Notes: a model not told the origin generated them from the sequence alone. Positions 10,220-30,086 are shown, numbered from the stretch's first letter. The stretch is 47,736 nt of DNA from an uncultured Alphaproteobacteria bacterium (GCA_903879805.1 CAIRMX010000140.1:1-47736); one strand, 5' to 3'. Translations and numbers: made by a program.

Positions 10220-11017
10220 TTAATTTTTCCAACCGGTTACAGTCACGATTTCAAAAGTTGCAGCTACGCCACCTTCACTTGTTGCGTAAATTTTACGGTA
10301 ATTTTCAGAAATTTTTTGTAAAAATTCTTTAGTAAAAAACTTCCGCGAGCGTTTAGTTAAAATGTTGCCCTGCCCCATGTTTTTCAAGTCTTTTAACAGA
10401 TTCAAAGGCTCGCCATACTCAACTTCAATTTTAGCAAAATCAGAAATCGGATTTTGAAAACCGGCTTTGGCAAAAAGATTGGCAGCGGTTTTTACATCAA
10501 TTGTCGGCGGCATTCTCGGCGAAATTCCGCCGTAAATTTCATTTTCAGTTTCGTATAAAACGTGAGCCAGTTGGCTGAGATTTTCTTCACCAAAAAAGCT
10601 GGCGATGAAGACGCCGTTTGGTTTTAATAGGTTTTTGATTTGGAGTAAAAATTGCGGAATTTCGTTGATGAAGTGGAAGTTGAGATTGCTTAGAATTAGG
10701 TCAAAGGATTCGGGAGCTTGTGGCAAGCCCTCTTCATCATCACACTCCTCCCAAGTCACCCTGAGCTTGTCGAAGGGTGATTCAGGGCGCGGGCTTGAAT
10801 CATGCTTCGACAAGCTCAGGGTGACATCGTGAAGATGGTCATCTAAAGCCCCAATCTCCAAAATATTCACAAACTCACGATTCAATAACCCAACATTCTC
10901 AGCAATTCTATTTGCAACTTCGTGATGTAAAAAATTATGCTGCACGAAACCCTTGGCAGCGCGTTTGCGGTTTTGCCGCAGCAAATCTCGATCAAATAGA
11001 ACCTCTTGAGTCATCAC
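10220..11017 (-). CDS. class I SAM-dependent methyltransferase-like protein (NDUFAF5/BioC-like) carrying an in-frame palindromic insert
   Basis: N-terminus FDRDLLRQNRKRAAKGF...FLHHEVANRIAENV and SFDLILSNLNFHFINE...LKPNGVFIASF match the methyltransferase-11 / NDUFAF5-like layout. Motif I is degenerate (ILEIGALDD). Confidence 0.7.
   Translation of the reverse strand: MMTQEVLFDRDLLRQNRKRAAKGFVQHNFLHHEVANRIAENVGLLNREFVNILEIGALDDHLHDVTLSLSKHDSSPRPESPFDKLRVTWEECDDEEGLPQAPESFDLILSNLNFHFINEIPQFLLQIKNLLKPNGVFIASFFGEENLSQLAHVLYETENEIYGGISPRMPPTIDVKTAANLFAKAGFQNPISDFAKIEVEYGEPLNLLKDLKNMGQGNILTKRSRKFFTKEFLQKISENYRKIYATSEGGVAATFEIVTVTGWKN
10755..10825. repeat. palindromic RPE/MITE-like element (family C) inside a coding region
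   Basis: A perfect 21-bp inverted repeat: gtcaccctgagcttgtcgaag (10755-10775) and cttcgacaagctcagggtgac (10805-10825). It is translated in frame as VTLSLSKHDSSPRPESPFDKLRVT. Confidence 0.85.
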
Positions 11018-11025
11018 GTTAGAAA

Positions 11026-11748
11026 ATGAAAATTTTAAAGAATTTTTTGGAAATTATTTTTCCAAGTCACTGCCTCGCTTGCGAGAAAATCGTTAATCGC
11101 GACGGCCTTTTTTGCTCAGAATGCTGGCCGAAACTGCAATTCATCTGTGAACCGAAATGCCAAATTTGCGCCTATCCGTTTGAGTTTCAAGGCTTGAGTT
11201 TGCTGTGCGCGAAATGTTTAACGAAGAGACCTTCTTTTGACAAAGCCGTGGTGCTTTTTCGCTACAATCACATTTTACGCAAAATCATCAGCTCGTTAAA
11301 ATATCGCGATCAAACTTTTTTGGCCAAGAAATTTGCGCGGCTTTTATTTGACAAAGCCAAAAGTGAAATTGCTGATTGCGACCTGATAATTCCAGTGCCG
11401 CTGCATGTAAAAAGATTGCGCAAAAGAAAATTTAATCAGGCAATTTTGCTGGCAAAAAACTTATTAAATTTCGCACCGGATAAAAATTTTATTGCCGATT
11501 TTCTAGTGCGAATCAAAGACACCAAACCGCAAGTTGAGCTGAAAAAGAAAGAGCGCGAAAATAATTTGAAAAACGCTTTTGCGGTAAACGCGAAATATCT
11601 CAAAGACGTGCGTGGCAAAAAAATTCTGCTAATTGACGACGTCACCACAACTGGCGCCACGTTTGAGAATTGTGCAAAAATTCTAAAAAAACACGGCGTT
11701 AAAAAAGTTGTGGTGCTGGCAATTGCCAAAACAGCTCTGAGCTTTTAG
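11026..11748 (+). CDS. comF: ComF-family phosphoribosyltransferase-domain protein
   Basis: N-terminal Cys-rich zinc-ribbon-like CLAC...CSEC...CQIC...CAKC and the C-terminal PRTase motif KILLIDDVTTTGATF. Confidence 0.8.
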   Translation: MKILKNFLEIIFPSHCLACEKIVNRDGLFCSECWPKLQFICEPKCQICAYPFEFQGLSLLCAKCLTKRPSFDKAVVLFRYNHILRKIISSLKYRDQTFLAKKFARLLFDKAKSEIADCDLIIPVPLHVKRLRKRKFNQAILLAKNLLNFAPDKNFIADFLVRIKDTKPQVELKKKERENNLKNAFAVNAKYLKDVRGKKILLIDDVTTTGATFENCAKILKKHGVKKVVVLAIAKTALSF

Positions 11749-16990: not shown

Positions 16991-18826
16991 ATGTTTGTGC
17001 CACAAAAGATTAAATGGAAATTTTTTTACCAAAATCAGTGCAGCTTCGAAGCACCAGAAGGCATGAGAATGCTGGCACCATTGCTGCTTAGTCGAGATGC
17101 GCCAAATCAAGCTTACATCAAAGTTTTGCAAAAAATGATGAGTCGTGGTTTTTGCGTTTGCGTACCTTGTGATGAAACCTCTGAAGGTCTTGTTGGCAGT
17201 TTTGACGAAGAAAACATCGATCAATTTTTATCTGAAGCGCGATACAAAACATCAACTTGCGATCTAAAATTTGCAACCGGCCCCTGCCCGACAAATTTAT
17301 TTCCCACCTCTCCCTCTGAAGGTGCGTCACAAGCTATCAGTGCCCTCGAGCATGGTTTTGACATCATTGATTTTTGTGGCGGAATCGGCATCGACCAAAA
17401 ATTAATTTTGGTAAAAGATTATTTTAGAAGCGCCGCACTTCCCGAAAAAAGAAGTAGATTTTGGGGATTTAGCAATGGTTCAGCGCCAATGCTTTATTTA
17501 GGAGATGTCTTGCAAGCAATTCAGTCGAGATCTGCTTCTGATCTTTTTATGGACGAAAGTGCCGACAGAGATTTTGTAATCTCAAAAATGATTGAAGAAA
17601 ATAGAGCCGAAGATTTTGTCGAAAAAACTCTTCTACCGCTCAATGATTTTGCCAAAATAAAATATTCTTCCCAAGCAATTGGCGAGTCGATAAAATTCTA
17701 CGCCGTCAATGCCGAAGCCTTGTTACACAATTTGGACAGCGAAGAAGAATGGTCTCCACCTTTAGGTGAGAAATTTATTTTATCTATTGAGGGAATTTCT
17801 GGTGCTACAGGATTTTCACCTCACGAAGCTTTGGAAAAATTTTTAGCAAAATATCCCCCAGATCAAATTCAGCATATTGAGTTGGGAGAAATAGTAACTT
17901 TGAAATCAATTGGAATGGCGCAAATTGACGGGCAGTTAGTTAGCCCAAATGAAGAGCTAAATGCAGAAATTCTCGCCGAACAAGCAGCAATAAAAGCTAT
18001 TTGCGATCATTACGGAGTTGCTTTGGTGGCCAAAGAAGGCACTAGAACTGGACATGGTTCACATGTCGATCTTGATCCTTCTGATATGCCTTGTTCCATA
18101 TTTTCCAGCATAGCCGAAGATGGTGCATTGCGACTAACTCAGCGCACAAATTTGTTTAATTTAAGCACTCCACAAAAGCCGAGTGATAAAAAGCCAATGA
18201 ATAATTTATCTATCAAACCGCGATGGCAGCTTGATTCAACAGAGCGTCCAAAATTTTTATCAGAAGAAAGCTATAATCCACATTGCGATCCGACTCCAAC
18301 TACTCGCAATTTTGATTTAGAAGTTATCGCAATGAATTCAGAAGCTCATGAAATGTTACAAGGCGGTGCAATCACGCATGAAGTGGTTGGAGGTAAAATG
18401 TACAACGCAATTGAACTCGATTTAAATTTGGAAAAAGGGTTATTTTTGGTGCATGGCGCTTACGGAAGAAATGGCGCTTTTTTGCAAATTCAAGATGCGA
18501 CAATGCGAGGCCGAATGGGAAAAAGTAATATCTCCACAGGAGCTTTGGATCTACCTTTCGTTATTATCGGACACAATCTTTCGCCAGAAATTCCTGTCGA
18601 AAAAGCTCAAGATTTTATCAAATGGAATCAGGCTCTTTTGGTAAAATTTATTGAGCTAAATCAGCTGCACCAAACGCCGATATTTTATATTCGCGAACCT
18701 CTTGCAATCGATTGCGATTTATTCGCTGGACTGGTTAACTTAAGATCGAAAACACCAGTTACCGAAATCCAAACCTCAGAACCATCCACTCAACAAGGCA
18801 AGTCCTCTTCTCATTTTCATGCGTAA
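16991..18826 (+). CDS. hypothetical protein; N-terminal ~375 aa weakly resemble peptidase S66 (LD-carboxypeptidase/MccF-like), C-terminal ~240 aa unknown
   Basis: Long ORF whose stop overlaps the next gene by 8 nt. S66-like landmarks seen by eye: FCGGIG, then WGFSNG 30 aa later, then LSIEGISG and TRTGHGSH. No database confirmation was possible. Confidence 0.55.
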   Translation: MFVPQKIKWKFFYQNQCSFEAPEGMRMLAPLLLSRDAPNQAYIKVLQKMMSRGFCVCVPCDETSEGLVGSFDEENIDQFLSEARYKTSTCDLKFATGPCPTNLFPTSPSEGASQAISALEHGFDIIDFCGGIGIDQKLILVKDYFRSAALPEKRSRFWGFSNGSAPMLYLGDVLQAIQSRSASDLFMDESADRDFVISKMIEENRAEDFVEKTLLPLNDFAKIKYSSQAIGESIKFYAVNAEALLHNLDSEEEWSPPLGEKFILSIEGISGATGFSPHEALEKFLAKYPPDQIQHIELGEIVTLKSIGMAQIDGQLVSPNEELNAEILAEQAAIKAICDHYGVALVAKEGTRTGHGSHVDLDPSDMPCSIFSSIAEDGALRLTQRTNLFNLSTPQKPSDKKPMNNLSIKPRWQLDSTERPKFLSEESYNPHCDPTPTTRNFDLEVIAMNSEAHEMLQGGAITHEVVGGKMYNAIELDLNLEKGLFLVHGAYGRNGAFLQIQDATMRGRMGKSNISTGALDLPFVIIGHNLSPEIPVEKAQDFIKWNQALLVKFIELNQLHQTPIFYIREPLAIDCDLFAGLVNLRSKTPVTEIQTSEPSTQQGKSSSHFHA

Positions 18827-22903: not shown

Positions 22904-22989
22904 ACCCCCCATTGTCACCCCGTCGAATGACGGGGTCCACAGTCCAAGATATTTGATCTTTTGTGTGACGAGATGGACCCCGTCATTCG
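22904..22989. repeat. palindromic element, family A (complete copy)
   Basis: Left arm gtcaccccgtcgaatgacggggtccac (from 22904) and right arm gtgacgagatggaccccgtcattcgacggggtgac (to 22989). Each arm contains a 7-bp stem, ccccgtc-gaat-gacgggg. Confidence 0.85.
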
Positions 22990-23025
22990 ACGGGGTGACA
23001 AATTAAAAAAGACGAAAATTAGTTC

Positions 23026-24453
23026 CTAATGATGATAAACATCCAAATTTCCAAAGCGCGTAAACTCGCCGTCAAAAAATAAATTCACGCTGCCAACTGG
23101 GCCATTACGCTGTTTGGCGATGATGACCTCGGCCAAATGGCGCAACTCATTCATTTTCTGATTCCACTCGCCAAATTTCGGATCGGTTTCTGGCGGCTTC
23201 TTTCTTTCATGATAATAACTGTCGCGATAAACAAAGGCCACCACGTCAGCATCTTGCTCGATCGAACCCGATTCACGCAAATCTGAAAGTTGTGGGCGCT
23301 TATCTTCACGCTGCTCAACCGCACGCGATAATTGCGACAAAGCCATCACCGGAATATTAAATTCTTTGGCAATCGCCTTTAAACCTTGAGTGATTTCAGA
23401 AACTTCCTGCACGCGATTATCTTGACCTCGCGCTGAAACGCCACGAATTAGCTGCAAATAATCCACAATCAAAAGTGATAAATTATGCTTACGAACCATG
23501 CGGCGCGCACGGGTGCGAATTGCTGAAATTGAAAGTGCCGGAGTGTCATCAATAAAAAGCGGCATTTTAGAAATCTCGGCAGAGCGCATGGCAACAGCTT
23601 CCCACTCGTGATCGTTTAATTGTCCGGTTCTGAATTTGCCGGCATTGATACTCGTTTCCATCGACAAGATTCTTGATGCCAATTGGTCGGAAGACATTTC
23701 CAGCGAGAAAAATCCTACCGCTTTTTTGTCTTTTTGTTCAGTAACATCTTTGTTCATAAATTTGCAGGCGTTAACCGCGATATTTACGCCGAGCGCCGTT
23801 TTTCCCATTGAAGGACGTCCCGCCAAAATGATTAAATCAGATTGCTGCATGCCGCCAAGAATTTTATCTAGATCGGTAAGTCCGCTTGAAACGCCACTAA
23901 TGTGGGCGCCGCGTTGTTTTGCAATTAAAGTTTTATCGAGCGTTTCTTTTAGCGAAACCGAAATGCTGCGAAAATCGCTGCGACCATTTCCATGCTCTGA
24001 AAGCTTGAAAAGACTAGATTCAGCGAGTTCGATTTGGTCGCTTGCTGAAGTTTTTTCTTCCGCCTTAAAAACGCGATTCACGATATCTTCGCCAACCATT
24101 GATAATTCACGCTTCAAAGCCAAGTCGTGAATCAAACGCCCGTAATCTGCAATATCAATAATTGAAGAAGCCGCGCCCAAAAGCGTTGAAAGATAAAGCG
24201 CGCCGCCAGTTGCTTTTACGGCTTCGTCTGATTCGAAAAATTGTTTAAGAGTAACTTGGTTGGCAACGATTTGCACCTTCTCAACATTGTGCAAAATCTG
24301 CGAAAAAATATTGCGATGCGCCGGCTCGTAGAAATGCTCTTCACGCAAAAATTCTGAAACACGATTTAAATATTCGTTGTTCAAAATAATAGTGCCAAGC
24401 ACCGCCTGCTCTGCTTCGATGTTAAAAAGTTCTTTGCGAGTTTGAGTTGTCAT
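23026..24453 (-). CDS. dnaB: replicative DNA helicase DnaB
   Basis: N-terminal EAEQAVLGTIILNNE, Walker A GRPSMGKTALGVN, LIIVDYLQL, and the C-terminal IIAKQRNGPVG. I prefer the ATG at 24453 (MTTQTRKEL) to the TTG at 24516. Confidence 0.93.
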   Translation of the reverse strand: MTTQTRKELFNIEAEQAVLGTIILNNEYLNRVSEFLREEHFYEPAHRNIFSQILHNVEKVQIVANQVTLKQFFESDEAVKATGGALYLSTLLGAASSIIDIADYGRLIHDLALKRELSMVGEDIVNRVFKAEEKTSASDQIELAESSLFKLSEHGNGRSDFRSISVSLKETLDKTLIAKQRGAHISGVSSGLTDLDKILGGMQQSDLIILAGRPSMGKTALGVNIAVNACKFMNKDVTEQKDKKAVGFFSLEMSSDQLASRILSMETSINAGKFRTGQLNDHEWEAVAMRSAEISKMPLFIDDTPALSISAIRTRARRMVRKHNLSLLIVDYLQLIRGVSARGQDNRVQEVSEITQGLKAIAKEFNIPVMALSQLSRAVEQREDKRPQLSDLRESGSIEQDADVVAFVYRDSYYHERKKPPETDPKFGEWNQKMNELRHLAEVIIAKQRNGPVGSVNLFFDGEFTRFGNLDVYHH

Positions 24454-25113: not shown

Positions 25114-25147
25114 AAAAAAAATGAATTTGATTCAAGAAGCCAAGCAA

Positions 25148-25239
25148 GAGATCCTGAAACAAGTTCGGGATGACTTAGAAGATAGACAATGAGATCTAGT
25201 CGCACCCACCGCGTCATCCTGAACTTGTTTCAGGATCTC
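25148..25239. repeat. palindromic element, family D, between regB and regA
   Basis: 27-bp arms gagatcctgaaacaagttcgggatgac (25148-25174) and gtcatcctgaacttgtttcaggatctc (25213-25239), perfect complements apart from one position. Confidence 0.85.
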
Positions 25240-25252
25240 TTACCAATTTGTT

Positions 25253-29959: not shown

Positions 29960-30086
29960 CCCCTCCTTTTTAAGGAGGGGTTGGGGTGGTTATTCGCAGA
30001 ATCGATTGAAAAAAATTATTTGCGCAAAAAAGACTAAAAAATGAGTTTGCGAATAACCACCTCGACCCCTACTTGAAAAGGAGGGG
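29960..30086. repeat. two inverted family-B palindromic element copies upstream of sdhC
   Basis: cccctcctttttaaggaggggttggggtggttattcgc (29960-29997) and gcgaataaccacctcgacccctacttgaaaaggagggg (30049-30086) are near reverse complements of each other and resemble 15588-15628. Confidence 0.8.

Follow-up and report, generated by a model that had tools for sequence, protein, structure and literature searches.

A dispersed palindromic repeat carried in frame within an NDUFAF5/BioC-like gene of an uncultured alphaproteobacterium

Introduction

In-frame insertion of palindromes into bacterial genes is already known and was first described in Rickettsia, the Rickettsia palindromic elements (RPEs) reportedly being the subject of work by Ogata et al. 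in 2000 and 2002 and by Claverie and Ogata in 2003. REPINs, which combine repetitive extragenic palindromic (REP) units, are said to be mobilised by REP-associated tyrosine transposases (RAYTs), as reportedly described by Bertels and Rainey in 2011, Nunvar in 2010 and Ton-Hoang in 2012. Hairpin-loop inversion and quasipalindrome correction by template switching have been described in chloroplast spacers and in mutagenesis of E. coli. Here we examine a 71-bp palindrome that is translated within an NDUFAF5/BioC-like gene on a 47,736-nt contig of an uncultured alphaproteobacterium (CAIRMX010000140.1 of assembly GCA_903879805.1; this whole stretch is called the window below). The host is a lake-water metagenome-assembled genome, and homologues of the gene product are named 'Rickettsiales bacterium'.

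Among described systems we also consider the CGTC/TGTC-tagged REP superfamily of Di Nocera et al. (2013, PMC3733652), who report it mainly from alpha-proteobacteria and identify it with R. conorii's RPE-4 and RPE-6. Its units carry a CGTC, TGTC or CCTC tag, stems of 8-9 bp starting with A-T, loops of 4-5 nt and CCA tails; they lie mostly in head-to-head dimers, those inside genes encode 20-30 aa, and the superfamily has no known dedicated transposase (PMC3733652). A first reading of the window, made from the sequence alone (the sequence-only reading), had drawn an analogy between the palindrome and RPEs, which this published equation and the coding capacity of intragenic dimers bear out. We consider it very probable that the 71-bp sequence is a copy of a dispersed REP/RPE-type family that inserted into a permissive linker and persists there as an in-frame, near-neutral passenger, with protein fold and selection retained.

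Results

A palindrome read through in frame

The palindrome at 10755-10825 has two 30-nt arms (10755-10784 and 10796-10825) that are 93% complementary and 11 nt apart, the outer 21 nt being perfect complements (Table 1). A 25-nt arm sequence occurs only at these two sites in the 47.7-kb window (shuffles expect 0), and RNA of the stretch (transcript strand) folds at -58.7 kcal/mol, compared with -24.3 +/- 3.3 kcal/mol for shuffles (z -10.4), in agreement with the earlier description of a 71-bp element with perfect 21-bp arms. The host open reading frame (ORF) stays intact across it, confirming the read-through proposed at the outset: the protein reads ...LHDVTLSLSKHDSSPRPESPFDKLRVTWEE... (also as ...ILEIGALDDHLHDVTLSLSKHDSSPRPESPFDKLRVTWEECDDEEGLPQAPESFDLILS...) over the element, which encodes V65-T88 (~24 aa), and a predicted tryptic peptide of the protein is HDSSPRPESPFDK. 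The sequence-only reading was also right that the opposite strand specifies nearly the same peptide, since an antisense ORF ends ...QVTLSLSKGDSGRGLESCFDKLRVTS; this ORF is a by-product of palindrome symmetry, not a gene. Direct reading of the arm shows one stop-free frame, while the other two run into TGA; this accounts for the shared frame of all genic copies and for the identical peptide from either strand. The host protein matches Pfam Methyltransf_11, _12, _25 and _31 at or above curated cut-offs and BioC below its cut-off, and 6 contigs, each from another sample, encode an identical 264-aa version.

The unit of the element consists of a 5-6-bp stem (ACCCT/AGGGT) enclosing an 11-nt loop, GAGCTTGTCGA, and is followed by GAT (within TGATTCA) that forms part of the inner stem of the dimer; there is no CCA tail. 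Among 63 copies, GTCA is preceded by T in a fraction of 0.50 and by A in 0.42, and in other copies the palindrome extends ~5 nt past GTCA, the 3-5 variable nt outside GTCA being inverted rather than direct repeats. Two flanks might belong to the element, although this is uncertain (Table 1): that at 10826-10834 departs from the insert-free orthologue in just its first 3-4 nt, and that at 10744-10754 encodes W-E-E of the strand TWEEC.

The element is dispersed in freshwater metagenomes

The window derives from lake and freshwater metagenomes, and depth peaks sharply over the element in two of the sequencing runs. Depth over 10738-10841 reached 73-447 in lake metagenome run X1 (flanks 10.3) and 185-888 in lake metagenome run X3 (flanks 15-21), or ~40-50x flank depth. 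Many contigs are 71-73 nt long, and many others with unrelated flanks begin exactly at 10754/10755 and 10825-10829; these contigs, together with loose ends, set the repeat boundaries at the same positions. Scanning metagenomes with a subfamily pattern (core-NN-TGATT...AATCA-NN-core) returned 106 copies on 94 stretches, some contigs holding three, and a related genome (L049) has one copy at another locus. What had been proposed as a mobile-element-like repeat is thus dispersed and multicopy, in unrelated contexts. No match to plasmids was obtained by blastn.

Most subfamily copies have no long ORF through them and are intergenic. In five cases the copy is in frame within a protein confirmed by Pfam: an IleRS-like class I tRNA synthetase (L140), an Hsp70 with the peptide VTLSLSKGDSSPRPESPFDKLRVT (L183), a NUDIX protein (L180), and a U5-methyltransferase (L215) and an AhpC/TSA protein (L138) in which the copy is near the N-terminus and might precede the true start codon. 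T-runs flank both sides of 42% of 55 non-redundant copies (~8.5% expected), and for this reason many intergenic copies look like bidirectional terminators. At the genic copy, which has no T-run, a terminator scan made no call.

A near-identical burst subfamily on lake contigs (L135, L136, L147, L156 and others) is nested in a ~135-bp MITE (miniature inverted-repeat transposable element) with outer inverted repeats GGTGATTATCCC...GGGATAATAACC, in which many contigs end.

Orthologues with and without the element

Searches with the host protein gave 251 homologues at E <= 0.001, of which the best 120 were listed and aligned. In most of those listed, 38-45 residues separate LEIGA from FDLILS, compared with 58 in the window protein, and the linker is short (<=30 residues between aligned anchors) in 82 of the 120 aligned sequences. 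P0002, the nearest orthologue free of the insert, shares 96% identity outside the linker and lies in the same ComF-MTase-MiaB synteny; in place of the window's HD-[24 aa]-WEEC it has QTLVKTGQEVHYDFC. An orthologous copy is present in P0001, likewise 96% identical outside the linker. The insertion would thus date to the common ancestor of the window and P0001 lineages, after the split from P0002. The sequence-only reading had named a homologous peptide encoded without any DNA palindrome as the sign of ancestral protein sequence; none of the orthologues has such a peptide, and the nearest relative lacks the segment. Compared as DNA, ~84 nt of the window correspond to ~39 nt of P0002 (net +45 nt, 15 aa). 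The element had also been said to occupy the whole stretch between motif I and SFDLILS, which is incorrect, as HLHD precedes it and WEECDDEEGLPQAPE, containing a conserved strand and acidic motif, follows it.

These comparisons leave hardly any room for the idea that the segment is old coding sequence, palindromic by chance, or the product of a chimeric contig joined at a repeat. Repeats do break assemblies, and contigs end at this element; against an artefact, contigs from independent samples span it with identical sequence. Ancestral sequence is likewise at odds with the orthologous copy in P0001, with the short linkers of most aligned homologues, and with the presence of the same DNA in many unrelated contexts.

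Changes after insertion

The 13-nt central loop of the window copy matches that of P0001 at 5/13 positions directly and at 10/13 as the reverse complement, and the flanking dinucleotides match directly, from which it follows that the loop was flipped in place. A 2-nt conversion, TG to CC, rendered the arms of the window copy perfect over 21 nt and at the same time broke the closing stem of one unit, which is intact in P0001. Together the loop flip and the arm change are of the kind that template switching or arm-to-arm recombination at palindromes would produce. The encoded peptides differ at 6/24 positions, 4 of them through the loop inversion. The window copy is probably a decaying fossil that is no longer a canonical mobilisable unit.

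The host protein is predicted to retain its fold and remains under selection

We then asked what the insert means for the protein, as the sequence-only reading had suggested that the enzyme may be remodelled or inactivated through loss of beta-2. Motif I of the window protein is degenerate (EIGALDD), and in a profile alignment the whole orthologue family lacks ~20 residues of SAM-bound A. baumannii BioC (8x8i) that comprise beta-2, the acidic ribose ligand and alpha-B. Both defects are family-wide: the family has GArDe where BioC has GCGSG, with or without the insert, and orthologues free of the insert show the same absence of GxGxG and, within the short-linker clade, of beta-2 with its acidic ligand. 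A beta-2-like KTIVQTEI is still present in deeper relatives, for example P0093. Since the gap and GArDe occur regardless of the insert, erosion of the S-adenosylmethionine (SAM) site is older than the palindrome and independent of it, and the palindrome lies in the scar of the lost beta-2/alpha-B. By the same alignment, bacterial NDUFAF5-like orthologues, strongly conserved as they are, may not bind SAM canonically.

AlphaFold2 (120 sequences) predicts that the window protein keeps the class I fold (pLDDT 86, pTM 0.85), with residues 61-70 (HLHDVTLSLS) as the end of helix alpha-A, residues 71-87 as a loop, and residues 88-92 (TWEEC) and 105-110 (FDLILS) as strands. The best PDB matches by Foldseek are BioC 8x8i/8x8j (E 2.6e-13, TM 0.58-0.71), and JHAMT was also matched. 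Outside the linker, dN/dS is 0.145 (dS 0.17) between the window and P0001, both with the insert, and 0.077 (dS 0.31) between the window and insert-free P0002, which shows the host gene to be functional and under purifying selection in insert-bearing lineages. Because the ORF is intact, dN/dS is low, and an identical protein recurs on six contigs, the gene is alive and inactivation is unsupported. That the insert destroyed SAM binding and left a pseudogene or a remodelled non-enzyme, as the degenerate motif I and the absent BioC segment might have implied, is thus very improbable; the insert-free majority shares both defects, and the fold is predicted with confidence.

The opposite possibility, that the element peptide has become functional, for example by refilling the space of the lost beta-2/alpha-B or by forming a new interaction surface, is somewhat less improbable, and we still regard it as doubtful. 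In its favour, P0070 and P0072 (89% identical outside the linker) both keep a decayed element of the type that encodes SLSK as their whole linker, VTLSLS is placed at the end of helix alpha-A, and the window and P0001 copies held frame through the loop inversion. On the other hand, a quarter of the insert positions differ between these two copies, the loop is modelled with low confidence, and insert-free orthologues are the majority and under equally strong selection.

One linker has been hit repeatedly

In the orthologue alignment, at least 8 independent insertions from at least 3 element families fall within a few codons of the same linker. Independence follows from the carriers being closer to insert-free sequences (identity 0.85-0.99) than to carriers of the same type (0.66-0.83). 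Core identities of carrier and nearest insert-free sequence are 0.99 for P0013 and P0033; 0.96 and 0.95 for the window and P0001, respectively, with P0002; 0.94 for P0010 and P0016 (a pair compared as DNA); 0.90 for P0015 and P0017 and for P0073 and P0083; 0.88 for P0058 and P0067 and for P0108 and P0102; and 0.85 for P0009 and P0012.

The inserts themselves are diverse. P0073 (on L125) has a 132-bp palindrome with 38/41-nt arms that encodes PHPNPLPQGERG...SPLEGEGWGEG, within a 237-nt linker segment that folds at -132.6 kcal/mol. In P0015 (L126) and P0010 (L127), TGTC-tagged units form tail-to-tail dimers, which encode RPRREDGVT...SPRLHDGV and GPRNKLGVT...SPRTCCGV, respectively, and P0058 has a longer SLSK-type insert known from the protein alone. 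The 353-aa P0066 contains ~6 tandem copies of DGVTNPSSENTTLSSQ between PRPKDGVT...SPRLHDGV, where an element-derived segment seems, from the encoded sequence, to have expanded as an in-frame tandem repeat. In P0070 and P0072 the decayed SLSK element supplies the whole linker, GTCACCATGAGCCTGTCGAAG...TTCGACATGCTCAG, replacing the strand and acidic motif; the P0070 element (L227 10190-10245) has cores with 2 and 1 mismatches and a 15-nt spacer and encodes VTMSLSKGDEIIFDMLSET, and a perfect intergenic SLSK copy lies 4 kb downstream (L227 14678-14733).

Such recurrence could reflect a true insertion preference for the local DNA (structure-prone, replication- or transcription-exposed), or replacement of one GTCA-tagged element by another, rather than a filter of selection alone. 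The number of events and families, the insert-free status of the nearest relatives, and the absence of such inserts at any other position of the 120-sequence alignment speak for this explanation, and at Xanthomonas recB different REPs occur at about one site (Di Nocera et al., PMC3733652). Against it, the three empty sites examined share no motif or target duplication, insert-free linkers are hypervariable, as fits low constraint, and the same element family occurs in unrelated genes at unrelated sites. We therefore hold targeting to be possible and unlikely. Heavy element traffic combined with a very permissive scar is the simplest reading of the hot spot, in which case selection would have filtered out insertions elsewhere.

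A core shared across phyla

Scanning 185,579 species genomes for the paired core CTGAGCTTGTCGAAG...CTTCGACAAGCTCAG identified at least 120 loci, in Alpha-, Beta- and Gammaproteobacteria, Bacteroidota, Chloroflexota, Actinobacteria, Cyanobacteria and Desulfobacterales, where ~3e-5 loci are expected by chance by our own arithmetic. Across 119 copies, the 2 nt on either side of the core pair within an arm in 94-97% and across arms in 23-34%, the latter near chance; further out, cross-arm pairing dominates (76-84%). Local covariation at the core together with cross-arm pairing outside it indicates that each arm is its own hairpin with a conserved loop and that an outer stem joins two such units into the dimeric element. 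Outer termini among the matches listed are CCGTTCG...CGAACGG in most Proteobacteria and TGTCA...TGACA in Bacteroidota and in relatives of the window. The core CTGAGCTTGTCGAAG is conserved across phyla, and we did not find it described in the available literature; a literature search on the core DNA strings and encoded peptides returned no relevant paper.

Rfam at gathering threshold gave nothing for the whole window. A permissive search of 10700-10880 returned sub-threshold generic hairpins (miRNA precursors, and AaHKsRNA41 at 35 bits with a cut-off of 97), which we rejected as matching any long hairpin. By inspection, the motifs and organisation of the core do not fit a hammerhead or other ribozyme, an integron attC site or a CRISPR repeat.

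The element consists of two REP/RPE-type hairpin units that carry a TGTC tag and are arranged head to head, and in this it resembles the CGTC/TGTC REP superfamily. It shares with that superfamily the unpaired (C/T)GTC tag, the A-initial stem, head-to-head dimerisation, intragenic coding of 20-30 aa, and a mainly alpha-proteobacterial distribution, but differs in its shorter stem and longer loop (5-6 bp around 11 nt, not 8-9 bp around 4-5 nt), in having no CCA tail, and in a 15-nt core that is common to phyla with another outer terminus. With RPEs it has in common that a dispersed, multicopy palindrome is read in frame in housekeeping genes that remain functional, that either strand codes for the peptide, that the insert is in a surface loop, and that the host is alphaproteobacterial with Rickettsiales-labelled homologues; unlike RPEs it is found in an uncultured freshwater bacterium and not in Rickettsia, is shorter, at 71-90 bp, than RPE-1, and is likened to RPEs by description, not by RPE consensus sequence. 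As in REPINs, two inverted REP units form a long hairpin, units retain local stems, and heterodimers are preferred, yet the tag is (T/A)GTC rather than GTAG, and no RAYT was seen among the 20 window ORFs scanned or beside the copies at 120 other loci. Bacterial MITEs (Correia/NEMIS, ERIC, and QMITE1/QMITE2 of Coxiella, PMC5896051) are likewise small, non-autonomous, multicopy and at times in frame in ORFs, with intergenic copies between A- and T-runs like bidirectional terminators. Of the marks of a MITE derived from an insertion sequence (IS), we identified no parent IS and no direct-repeat target duplication; the element is entirely inverted repeat, and one subfamily is itself nested in a MITE. 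Template-switch events would explain the flipped loop and the TG-to-CC arm change, although here both changes lie inside translated sequence with the frame intact.

Other repeats and genes of the window

The sequence-only reading had noted GTCAYCC in two intergenic palindromes of the window, and both are present (Table 1). The one in the tsaD-dnaB gap fits the CGTC-1 (RPE-6-like) description (PMC3733652) and has a lake depth of 118-273 where the flanks have ~9; the other, between a response regulator and a PilS-like kinase, largely fits the superfamily description and resembles CGTC-2, with a depth of ~33 versus 9. A longer palindrome between glmS and sdhC represents a third repeat family. Inside dnaB, depth in lake metagenomes rises to 52-84 from 6-9 over ~35-40 nt; loose ends fall at 23243/23249 and 23277/23283, and the spike probably marks a highly conserved DnaB motif common to other bacteria. 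Two further ORFs, one for an ankyrin-repeat protein, are unmatched in the 90-93% identical relative L001, pointing to strain-level differences in gene content.

Table 1. Coordinates of the element, its host gene and other features of the window.
Feature	Position	Strand	Remarks
Host gene, NDUFAF5/BioC-like class I methyltransferase-fold protein	10220..11017	-	265 aa from GTG; 264 aa from ATG at 11014
71-bp palindromic element, head-to-head dimer of two REP-like units	10755..10825	.	arms, fold, metagenome boundaries
Element layout	10755..10825	+	GTCACC-core-GG-TGATTCA-loop-TGAATCA-TG-core(rc)-GGTGAC; from sequence
Unit tags of element	10755..10825		5' unit tag TGTC (A-TGTC-ACC) on gene-sense strand; other end AGTC
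Conserved 15-nt core, left arm	10761..10775	+	CTGAGCTTGTCGAAG; same core pair at >=120 genome loci across phyla
Reverse complement of core, right arm	10805..10819	+	CTTCGACAAGCTCAG; local closing stem broken here (TG...GG)
Central loop between inner stems TGATTCA/TGAATCA	10785..10795	.	inverted relative to orthologous P0001 copy
Flank, possibly element-derived, uncertain	10826..10834	.	ATCGTGAAG resembles family outer extension ATCGAGTT
Flank, possibly element-derived, uncertain	10744..10754	.	ACTCCTCCCAA resembles ACTCCTAA preceding GTCA in other copies
Antisense ORF, 75 aa	10605..10832	+	ends ...QVTLSLSKGDSGRGLESCFDKLRVTS; C-terminus mirrors insert peptide
Intergenic 90-bp head-to-head dimer, tsaD-dnaB gap	22912..23001		TGTC-ACCCCGTC-GAAT-GACGGGGT-CCA plus mirror
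Intergenic tail-to-tail dimer, response-regulator/PilS-like kinase gap	25146..25241		CGTC-ATCCTGAA-CTTGT-TTCAGGAT-CTC plus mirror
127-bp palindrome, glmS-sdhC	29960..30086		44-nt arms, 86%; arm hairpin CCCCTCCTT-TTTA-AGGAGGGG, then GGTGGTTATTCGC
Depth spike inside dnaB	23246..23336	-
Ankyrin-repeat protein, 759 aa	5547..7826
611-aa ORF	16991..18826		adjoins a 611-aa ABC-F gene, unrelated to it

Discussion

The events that we propose would have run as follows. One copy of a dispersed, high-copy REP/RPE-type family, built from two head-to-head hairpin units whose tag is (T/A)GTC, whose stem is short and whose 11-15-nt core is conserved, would have inserted into the NDUFAF5/BioC-like gene, in the linker that joins helix alpha-A to the next strand. 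That linker would already have been a scar, left by the older, family-wide loss of beta-2 and alpha-B. The copy may have survived because it landed in the one stop-free frame of the arm, because the net number of nucleotides gained is divisible by three, and because the linker is poorly constrained. The insert would then persist as a ~24-aa near-neutral passenger consisting of a helix end and a disordered surface loop.

Several observations weigh against this account. The window holds one copy of the element, and the metagenome depth may stem from other genomes. Relative to P0002, resident sequence was replaced rather than the element being cleanly inserted, and no target-site duplication can be defined, the flanks being inverted and not direct repeats. 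The insert is modelled with low confidence (residues 71-87, with pLDDT <50 at 73-83), and the one metatranscriptome contig, from a relative, spans 10848-11103 and ends short of the element. We found no transposase or RAYT among the 20 window ORFs scanned, and ORF clustering showed no gene that recurs beside the 120 cross-phylum copies, the clusters being only unrelated or spurious high-GC ones; movement would presumably be in trans, by an enzyme encoded elsewhere.

A bolder interpretation is also conceivable, though we would not expect it to prove correct: the linker scar may be a real landing pad re-used by several palindrome families, whose coding arms are recruited as building material, and the core CTGAGCTTGTCGAAG, with its locally covarying closing pairs in Proteobacteria, Bacteroidota, Chloroflexota, Actinobacteria and Cyanobacteria, may be the signature of a pan-bacterial REP-like superfamily that has not been catalogued and is bound by a conserved protein.

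With in-frame palindromes as such already familiar, the unusual part is the recurrence of hits in one loop; this re-use, the loop flip inside translated sequence, and the cross-phylum core are the features worth recording. The 15-nt core merits a proper census. A single loop that is recolonised offers a test bed for insertion preference versus selective tolerance, and the locus amounts to a datable natural experiment, the site being empty in a relative of 96% core identity and filled in two diverged lineages, between which a loop flip and an arm conversion are documented. More generally, the loop marks where a SAM-binding site was eroded, and the family-wide loss of beta-2 and GxGxG suggests a bearing on what NDUFAF5-type complex I assembly factors do.

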